Source: Escherichia coli (GTDB taxonomy: Bacteria; Pseudomonadota; Gammaproteobacteria; Enterobacterales; Enterobacteriaceae). Taken from it: a DNA stretch of 64,000 nucleotides. Shown here one piece after another: positions 61,400 to 61,740 of this stretch (positions are counted from its first letter, which is position 1; each line of letters begins with the position of its first letter). The notes beneath the pieces were generated by a model that saw only the letters and a program-made list of their open reading frames with translations, did not search any database and had not been told where the DNA came from. The position numbers and the translations under genes are program-made. The stretch lies in assembly GCF_044324875.1 (NCBI RefSeq), contig NZ_CP172185.1; one strand, written 5' to 3'.

Positions 61400-61740
61400 T
61401 GTCTGATCTGCGCTATCTGTCGGCTGTTCTCCTCCGTGCTCCTGCTTACTGTCTGCCGGATTTCGCTGCCCATCCTGTCAACTTTTCTGTCAACTTCCGC
61501 AATGGCCATTGACTGTTCACCGCTCTTTTTCGCCACAACAGTACTTATTTGCGCACTTTTATCATCAACATACTGCCTGACCTGCGCTATCTGTCGGCTG
61601 TTCTCCTCCGTGCTCCTGCTCACTGTCTGCCGGATTTCACTGCTCACGCTGTCAACTTTCCTGTCGACTTTCGCAATGGCCAGCGACTGTTCACCGCTCT
61701 TTTTCGCCACCAGTTCCGTTATGCTGTTTTCAGACGCCGT
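61400..61740 (-). repeat. 174-bp tandem duplication, 2 copies, inside J (58-aa coiled-coil units)
   Basis: CTGCGCTATCTGTCGGCTGTTCTCCTCCGTGCTCCTGCT… occurs at about 61408 and 61582; encodes (S/T)[10 protein letters not shown](L/M)AIA(K/E)VDRKVD…[19 protein letters not shown](V/I)RQYVDDK. Confidence 0.8.

Follow-up and report, generated by a model that had tools for sequence, protein, structure and literature searches.

A tandem duplication within a greatly expanded helical shaft of a lambda-type J protein in Escherichia coli

The alpha-helical shaft (AHS) of phage lambda is a segment of the central tail fibre protein gpJ, whose structure has been solved (PDB 8IYK, 8XCI, 8XCJ). In order, gpJ carries hub domains, FNIII-1, FNIII-2, the AHS, a beta-prism and an Ig-like receptor-binding domain. 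The AHS covers approximately residues 809-861 and is divided functionally at 840/841 (Ge and Wang 2024, PMC11101478). This short three-helix bundle holds the three FNIII-2 domains in place from below and joins them to the beta-prism and the receptor-binding domain (PMC11101478). When LamB is bound, residues 809-840 are remodelled, residues 841-861 refold into a beta-sheet atop the beta-prism and the FNIII clamp is released. Receptor binding itself maps to loops of the C-terminal Ig-like domain (PMC11101478).

A second described system is the J-like central fibre of the F7/F2 pyocins (PDB 25vf; PMC12874032), which has a long trimeric coiled coil immediately N-terminal to its beta-prism. In F7, this 163-residue coiled coil switches to beta-prism and powers puncture (He et al. 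2026, PMC12874032). The same switch is predicted for 21 of 24 siphophage fibres; the strands that form carry the signature SxSxxMxxLxS, and glutamine at the small-residue positions blocks the switch (PMC12874032). The lambda fibre is described as a latch that releases the tube, and the F-type pyocin fibre as an energy-storing fold switch.

Here, we describe a J gene of the same family and domain order as lambda gpJ that differs from it in having a 170-aa insert with a 58-aa tandem duplication and in being disrupted by an insertion sequence (IS). J-like central fibres with long coiled coils are already known, and the form of this shaft with one copy of the 58-aa unit is common and annotated simply as J. 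We found no published description of the 29-residue periodic construction, the 58-aa duplication or the two-to-three copy polymorphism reported below.

A lambda-type J gene split by an IS21-family element

We analyzed a stretch of 64,000 nucleotides of E. coli DNA, called the window throughout. The J gene lies on the minus strand and runs past the window end at 64000. Read from 63999, its frame stays open until a stop at 60871. The features of the locus are as follows.

60922..64000, minus strand: 5' part of J, from translation and Pfam; approximately the first 124 codons are cut off by the window end
61918..62226, minus strand: FNIII-2, second of the two Ig/FNIII domains in J (aa 592-694 of the partial protein; PF24489 Ig_J_second, E = 2.5e-40)
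60946..61329, minus strand: beta-prism or "central straight fibre" domain (Phage_Tail_Tip, PF09327, Pfam E = 2.2e-28), which aligns to lambda gpJ 839-980
58283..60921, minus strand: ISSso4-like IS of the IS21 family, 2,639 bp, from Pfam and from identical copies annotated ISSso4 elsewhere
59154-60800: istA (Pfam rve and Mu-transpos_C_2)
58382-59380: istB (Pfam IstB_IS21, E = 2.4e-60)
60922..60926, with a second copy at 58278-58282, no strand assigned: 5-bp target-site duplication ACGAG, from the junctions compared with the uninterrupted LH50-c gene
57819..58282, minus strand: 3' part of J with the C-terminal receptor-binding domain (PF12421 Ig_GpJ_C, E = 1.3e-38)

The 5' part of J contains the Pfam families FNIII-A_GpJ, Phage-tail_3, Ig_J, Ig_J_second and Phage_Tail_Tip. 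Together with the receptor-binding domain on the detached 3' open reading frame, six lambda-J families occur in the expected order, all above their gathering cut-offs with E values from 1e-25 to 1e-43. The protein matched solved lambda gpJ in a phmmer search (E = 2e-109 to 8iyk_J), and its 5' part shares 97.6% identity with gpJ of E. coli LH50-c (WP_254539419), which is intact and 1302 aa long. At the LH50-c locus, which is 97.6-99.9% identical, the gene order is L, a C40 peptidase (K), tail assembly (I), J and stf. In the window, an stf remnant lies downstream of J, and the genes upstream of J fall past the window end. The gene is a lambda-type tip attachment or central tail fibre protein J. 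Two antisense open reading frames over the repeat (61549-63771 and 61436-61933, plus strand) were without a Pfam match and were taken as spurious.

After the residues ...NVTINE, the J reading frame enters the IS, within which it meets its stop. The element belongs to the IS21 family and is ISSso4-like. It is 100% identical to copies annotated IS21-like ISSso4 in other E. coli genomes (RefSeq), its ends TG...CA were seen directly, and reiterated terminal repeats of 23/47 bp occupy its left end (60792-60925). When compared with LH50-c J, window positions 64000-60922 align at 97.6% and 58283-57513 at 99.9%, with the 2,639-bp element between them. Removing the element and one ACGAG copy restores a single open J frame that matches LH50-c at 100% over its last 150 aa. 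The junction between IS and J was not found in any complete E. coli genome searched.

Because the IS splits the gene, J is a pseudogene here. The receptor-binding domain is left as a detached open reading frame (57819-58226) while the shaft and prism lie on the other side of the element, so no functional fibre is made from this gene. The side tail fibre gene is likewise inactivated by an IS; with both genes broken in this way, the prophage copy in the window is a remnant.

Position, periodicity and duplication of the shaft

The repeat sits in a Pfam-free gap of the partial J (aa 695-890), directly downstream of FNIII-2. For the domains on either side, we use the names given for lambda (PMC11101478). 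The features within the gap are as follows.

61288..61896, minus strand: expanded AHS, predicted to be a continuous alpha-helix of approximately 203 residues, from AlphaFold2, the hydrophobic period and the lambda-homologous flanks
61348..61857, minus strand: segment of approximately 170 aa absent from lambda J, from MAFFT and phmmer against lambda gpJ (PDB chains 8iyk, 8xcj, 9wca)
61804..61836, minus strand: extra 11-aa segment, absent from the one-copy long forms and duplicated again in E. coli AR_0085
61537..61710, minus strand: unit A, 58 aa, a pair of 29-aa sub-repeats
61363..61536, minus strand: unit B, 58 aa, diverged from unit A in its last 22 nt

When searched against the PDB with phmmer, the protein gave two blocks of lambda gpJ, residues 725-838 and 839-980, which flank the approximately 170 aa that have no lambda counterpart. 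Both phmmer and MAFFT place the insert at the lambda 838/839 junction, only a few residues from where the two halves of the lambda AHS meet. A megablast comparison agreed, in that lambda-like phages cover the same query span in approximately 426 fewer nucleotides. Both ends of the shaft are homologous to the solved lambda AHS, up to residue 838 and then again from about residue 844. The spacing from GYL...LG(K/R) to WAVK is 33 residues in lambda and 203 residues (7 x 29) in the window J. Since the insert lies in the middle of the AHS and both lambda shaft ends are conserved, it is an expansion of the shaft and not a replacement.

These alignments bear on several statements of the first-pass annotation, which had been made from the letters of the window. 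It had reported a long charged helical stretch after the fibronectin-like domains that is absent from lambda J, and this is borne out. It had also described a lambda segment as replaced, which is incorrect given that both shaft ends are kept around the 170 aa. The insert was further said to stand directly ahead of the receptor-binding domain, where in fact the beta-prism of approximately 130 aa intervenes between shaft and receptor-binding domain, as does the IS in this copy. An alignment showing the same segment, without duplication, in canonical J proteins had been named as what would refute the observation, and this outcome is found in half. Lambda and the O157/Stx-phage J proteins lack the segment; lambda-like and Stx phages, including VT1-Sakai, have the short-form shaft. 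However, a one-copy homologue is common, occurring in 724 of 5,426 complete E. coli genomes.

The 227-aa shaft segment from GYLNFF to WAVKLQQ contains no proline and is 33% charged. AlphaFold2 run on the segment alone as a single sequence predicted one helix of 207 residues (36-242) with pLDDT of approximately 90. With an alignment of 30 sequences, the monomer was again predicted as one helix, now of 203 residues (30-232). In this second run, the shaft pLDDT was 60-79, below the single-sequence run, and the C-terminal Ig domain reached 80-94, while the prism, normally trimeric, was poorly modelled. A PDB search with the coiled-coil segment alone gave no significant match (best E = 0.43).

The hydrophobic residues of the shaft recur with a period of 3.625 (29/8). 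Power at this period was 139, compared to 31 +/- 13 in shuffled sequences, and none of 1000 shuffles reached the observed value. Power at the heptad period of 3.5 was only 8. The stretch had been called heptad-like, and a coiled-coil prediction had been proposed as a check; a charged, periodic long helix with a regular hydrophobic seam is indeed predicted, but the canonical heptad is not the period that it follows. With one of the two 58-aa units removed, we compared the segment with itself. The highest self-identity, 20.7%, fell at an offset of 29 residues; the best offset of shuffled sequences gave 12.6 +/- 1.2%, and 0 of 2000 shuffles reached the observed value. The offset-29 peak and the period of 29/8 together indicate that the shaft is an array of degenerate 29-residue repeats. 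In the window, seven rows of 29 residues follow an initial 17, and one 58-aa unit equals two rows.

A period of 3.625 corresponds to a nearly straight bundle, unlike the left-handed coil of classical heptads. With a hydrophobic seam every 3.625 residues, the repeats should therefore form a nearly straight trimeric bundle. That the shaft is a trimer is suggested by its two ends, which are homologous to those of the three-helix AHS solved in lambda.

The duplication itself is genuine and in frame (2 x 58 aa). At 61385-61710, Tandem Repeats Finder gave a score of 568 to a 174-bp period present in 1.9 copies, with 92% matches and without indels, and a separate repeat search found two 152-nt copies 174 nt apart with 92% identity. 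Both confirm the 174-bp tandem duplication in J that had been noticed at first reading. The two 58-aa units are present as described, although calling them nearly identical was generous. They share 47 of 58 residues (81%) and differ at 28 of 174 nucleotides, 12 of them within the first 152 nt and the other 16 within the final 22.

Copy number in related prophages and phages

We measured the distance between the motifs KSAFVEA and Y[IV]AGIG in related J proteins. The proteins fall on a ladder.

85 aa: lambda
186 aa: one-copy forms (phage PhiR40_1; clusters P0008, P0010, P0011, P0012)
255 aa (186 + 11 + 58): the window and E. coli LH50-c
324 aa (255 + 11 + 58): E. coli AR_0085

When measured between the conserved end motifs of the shaft itself, the lengths across the lineage are 33, 134, 203 and 272 residues.

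The two-unit sequence is present full-length at 99% identity or more in 21 of the 5,426 complete E. coli genomes (0.4%), and the three-copy form in AR_0085 is the only other near-identical match among them. Repeat copy number in related prophages, which had been proposed as a check, is variable: one copy in 724 genomes, of the PhiR40_1 type, two in 21 and three in one. Among 50,697 phage records, the long shaft occurs only in Escherichia phages PhiR40_1 and PhiR49_2 (PV340560, PV340570), and the duplication was not found in any. A literature search on the PhiR phage collection and tail-fibre repeat number found nothing directly relevant. A metagenome scan for the junction between units returned a single contig with two copies and an AR_0085-type distal module. 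When the 58-aa unit was searched against 1.84 billion representative proteins, there were 16 matches, and all convincing ones were fragments of Escherichia J. P0133 and P0135, which matched the unit in multiple stretches, were set aside as unrelated proteins with 11-aa EHSRQIAELR repeats.

The closest relatives of the window shaft are the one-copy forms. PhiR40_1 and PhiR49_2 share its long-shaft architecture and 29-aa periodic repeats, as do the one-copy J proteins of E. coli prophages (clusters P0008, P0010-P0012 and P0015-P0022). These differ in having one unit and no extra 11 aa (186 aa compared to 255 aa in the window J), and 37-40 of the 58 residues of their unit are the same as in unit A.

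The history of the duplication can be read from the similarity between units. Units A and B share 45 of 51 aa, compared to 31-39 of 51 aa between either unit and any one-copy allele. As A and B are mutually closest, the duplication arose within this lineage and the units have since diverged by approximately 8%. An origin by recombination between diverged alleles is unsupported by the same counts. When the window, LH50-c and AR_0085 were compared unit by unit, alleles of one unit differed by 0-2 nt. In AR_0085, there is no difference between units 1 and 2 over their 174 nt, and the extra 33-nt segment differs from its neighbour by 1 nt, indicating that both additions are recent. J is intact in LH50-c and in AR_0085.

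Tandem repeats are prone to mis-assembly, and one database protein, P0121, has two suspicious 29-aa duplications that we treated as a possible assembly artefact. There is next to no chance that the same explanation holds for the window. Units A and B differ at 28 positions, and the arrangement recurs at 99% identity or more in 21 complete genomes, independently assembled in different laboratories, and on the metagenome contig. An assembly or sequencing artefact is effectively refuted by this recurrence.

What the added length may do

We consider it likely that the duplication, lying within a greatly expanded AHS of J, acts as a spacer with a geometric effect, and that it came about by recombination or slippage. 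At 0.15 nm per helical residue, the whole insert would add approximately 25 nm and each 58-aa unit approximately 8.7 nm. In lambda, the fibre tip lies 29.7 nm from the FNIII domains (PMC11101478). With the insert added to this distance, the fibre of the intact protein would be roughly 55 nm. The extra length would move the beta-prism and receptor-binding domain away from the tail tip and leave the choice of receptor unchanged. The observed additions of 11 and 58 residues keep the hydrophobic seam in register. The additions most probably originated by unequal homologous recombination or slippage between the periodic 29-aa repeats. Recombination of this kind would explain why the steps of 11 and 58 residues are near-whole helical turns. 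The third unit of AR_0085, identical at the nucleotide level, indicates that the copy-number process is still active.

A longer fibre may be of benefit if it helps the phage to reach outer-membrane receptors through O-antigen. O-antigen blocks lambda and shields OmpC from Gifsy-1 J (PMC12312913). The added length may also be selectively neutral. In lambda, the shaft flips and residues 841-861 refold to beta-sheet (PMC11101478), so a purely geometric role may be too simple.

The rarity of the two-copy allele (0.4% of complete genomes) and its absence from the 50,697 phage records count against a spacer function. They also speak for the possibility, which we rate well below even, that the duplication is a functionless by-product of recombination in periodic sequence that hitch-hikes in a decaying prophage. 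In a periodic sequence, in-register duplications are mechanistically easy, the allele is found in only 21 + 1 of 5,426 genomes, and IS have inactivated J and the side tail fibre gene alike in the window. However, A and B are in frame and have remained open while diverging by 8%, the alleles of any one unit differ by no more than 2 nt among the window, LH50-c and AR_0085, and the same units recur in two- and three-copy genomes and on the metagenome contig, with two distal modules. The intact J of LH50-c and of AR_0085 also argues against decay as the setting. A different account, which we regard as unlikely, is that the long coiled coil is a metastable spring that, like the one in the central fibre of the F7 pyocin, turns into beta-prism once the receptor is contacted. 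Each 29-aa sub-repeat would then fold as a beta-hairpin, and the duplication would give a larger stroke or more stored energy. This account has a precedent in a J-like fibre (PMC12874032), and the shaft lies directly N-terminal to PF09327, which is homologous to the lambda beta-prism. The helix-to-sheet change of lambda 841-861 takes place right beside the insertion point (PMC11101478). Moreover, 58-aa duplications, and the reported 29-aa duplications, would add an even number of strands, and the C-terminal part shows weak sequence similarity to F-pyocin and J-like fibres in the PDB (25vf_A, E = 0.0065; 9l9p_S, 2.9e-7; 23gd_D, 2e-5). The composition of the shaft points the other way. SxSxxMxxLxS is not enriched, with 2 perfect matches compared to 1.95 +/- 1.4 in 2000 shuffles, and the positions that need small residues hold Lys, Arg, Glu and Gln. 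Exposed positions are large and charged or polar, and Ala makes up only 7.5% of the segment. AlphaFold2 gave helix with both the single sequence and the 30-sequence alignment, although a monomer run is an insensitive test of such a switch, and the coiled-coil segment alone is without a significant PDB match. The window J therefore differs from the F7/F2 pyocin fibre in lacking signature enrichment, in being Ala-poor and rich in charged residues and Gln, and in having no AlphaFold beta prediction. It also differs in its receptor-binding arrangement, which is an Ig-like domain of J itself in the window and the separate proteins PyoF11 and PyoF12 in the pyocin.

The first-pass annotation had named the region as a candidate for host-range variation or recombination. 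The region is polymorphic in length and its flanks are recombination mosaics, which accords with part of this suggestion. It also belongs to the distal half of J, the part in which lambda host-range mutations cluster. Even so, we find it highly improbable that the repeat contacts the receptor or sets receptor specificity. Lambda binds its receptor through C-terminal Ig-like loops (PMC11101478), and here the corresponding PF12421 domain is a separate module. A receptor-binding domain 90.6% identical to that of the window has a one-copy shaft as its partner, and the shaft with two copies is also paired with a different, unrelated distal module. These pairings speak against receptor specificity being set by the repeat. 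In addition, A and B are each other's closest relatives and show no sign of diversifying exchange.

Under the preferred explanation, the repeat is a length-adding spacer. Shafts whose length varies with repeat number have parallels elsewhere. In trimeric fibrous stalks such as the adenovirus fibre shaft and the stalk of trimeric autotransporter adhesins, length shifts by whole repeats while the terminal binding domain is unchanged; their folds and organisms are unrelated to phage J. A more ambitious version of the idea, which we consider unlikely, is that the J shaft is a rapidly evolvable "ruler". Recombination between its periodic repeats would alter fibre length in steps that keep register (11, 58 and perhaps 29 residues), so that the receptor-binding domain, itself unchanged, would reach as far as the thickness of the host's O-antigen or capsule layer demands. 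A variant of the ruler that includes a fold switch, with 29 aa equal to one beta-hairpin, is less likely. If the ruler is true, then the signal of receptor binding would be able to travel from the beta-prism to the FNIII clamp over shafts of 33 to 272 residues.

This lineage provides a natural length series (33, 134, 203 and 272 residues) in which the motifs at the shaft ends are conserved throughout, and the third unit without nucleotide differences indicates that shaft length changes on short time scales. The series could be used to test how fibre length relates to outer-membrane receptor access on smooth, O-antigen-bearing E. coli, and whether triggering is independent of shaft length. It may therefore be of modest value for studying signal transmission and reach in lambda-type tails.

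Insertion elements in the two fibre genes

The reading frame of J, the lambda-type tail-tip gene of the prophage, is interrupted directly past ...NVTINE by an ISSso4-like element of the IS21 family, which is flanked by a 5-bp target duplication, ACGAG. Its junction with J was absent from all complete E. coli RefSeq genomes.

58283-60921: ISSso4-like element in J (2,639 bp)
59154-60800: istA
58382-59380: istB
60792-60925: reiterated 23/47-bp repeats (ATGCCAAA..GTGATCGATTC) at the left end of the element

These repeats, from which the truncated J frame draws its final 17 codons, are probably multiple terminal transposase-binding repeats of the IS21-family type.

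The side tail fibre gene carries an IS66-family element with GTAA...TTAC ends in its 5' part, flanked by an 8-bp target duplication (GATTCTTC). Since J is also split by an IS, both fibre genes of the prophage are disrupted.

54814-57512: IS66-family element
56782-57459: tnpA
56435-56782: tnpB
54844-56415: transposase
53284-54780: side tail fibre remnant, with abundant collagen triple-helix repeats (PF01391, E = 1e-45)

Internal DNA repeats are numerous in the remnant, and its length differs from that of its homologue in strain LH50-c, which has an intact J. The side tail fibre gene is a second repeat-length-variable fibre gene of J's module.

Genes opposite J and downstream of the fibre genes

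Two long open reading frames lie antisense to J. Neither has a Pfam match, and both are most likely spurious.

61549-63771 (+): antisense ORF, 740 aa
61436-61933 (+): antisense ORF, 165 aa

Downstream of the tail fibre genes (50373-51968 and 52694-53269) are genes for a YadA-like trimeric autotransporter adhesin, matching YadA_anchor and YadA_stalk, and for a DUF4376 protein. Because the LH50-c prophage has the same gene order, these genes are probably prophage cargo.

The window also holds an aerobactin-type siderophore operon (38994-46011) beside the prophage remnant, with a transporter and a transposase between the two.

42958-44745: IucA/IucC-family synthetase
40268-42010: IucA/IucC-family synthetase
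42010-42957: GNAT acetyltransferase
38994-40271: lysine N-monooxygenase
44818-46011: MFS transporter, divergent
48332-49492: IS256/Mutator-family transposase

Variation in the shaft and distal end of J

The database J fragment P0121 shows exact 29-aa duplications at two separate sites, the helical shaft and the beta-prism domain. A 29-aa step would fit the sub-repeat of the shaft; that both duplications have the same length, 87 nt, suggests an assembly artefact.

An alternative distal end of J (…[26 protein letters not shown]…RLGRL) occurs in E. coli AR_0085 (locus L003, 1133-5771) and in locus L005, where it stands in for the remaining prism and the Ig-like receptor-binding domain. The recombination joint falls within the conserved FMNDVF motif. 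In AR_0085, two small hypothetical genes come next after this end, and the AR_0085-type J end may represent a design with separate receptor-binding proteins.
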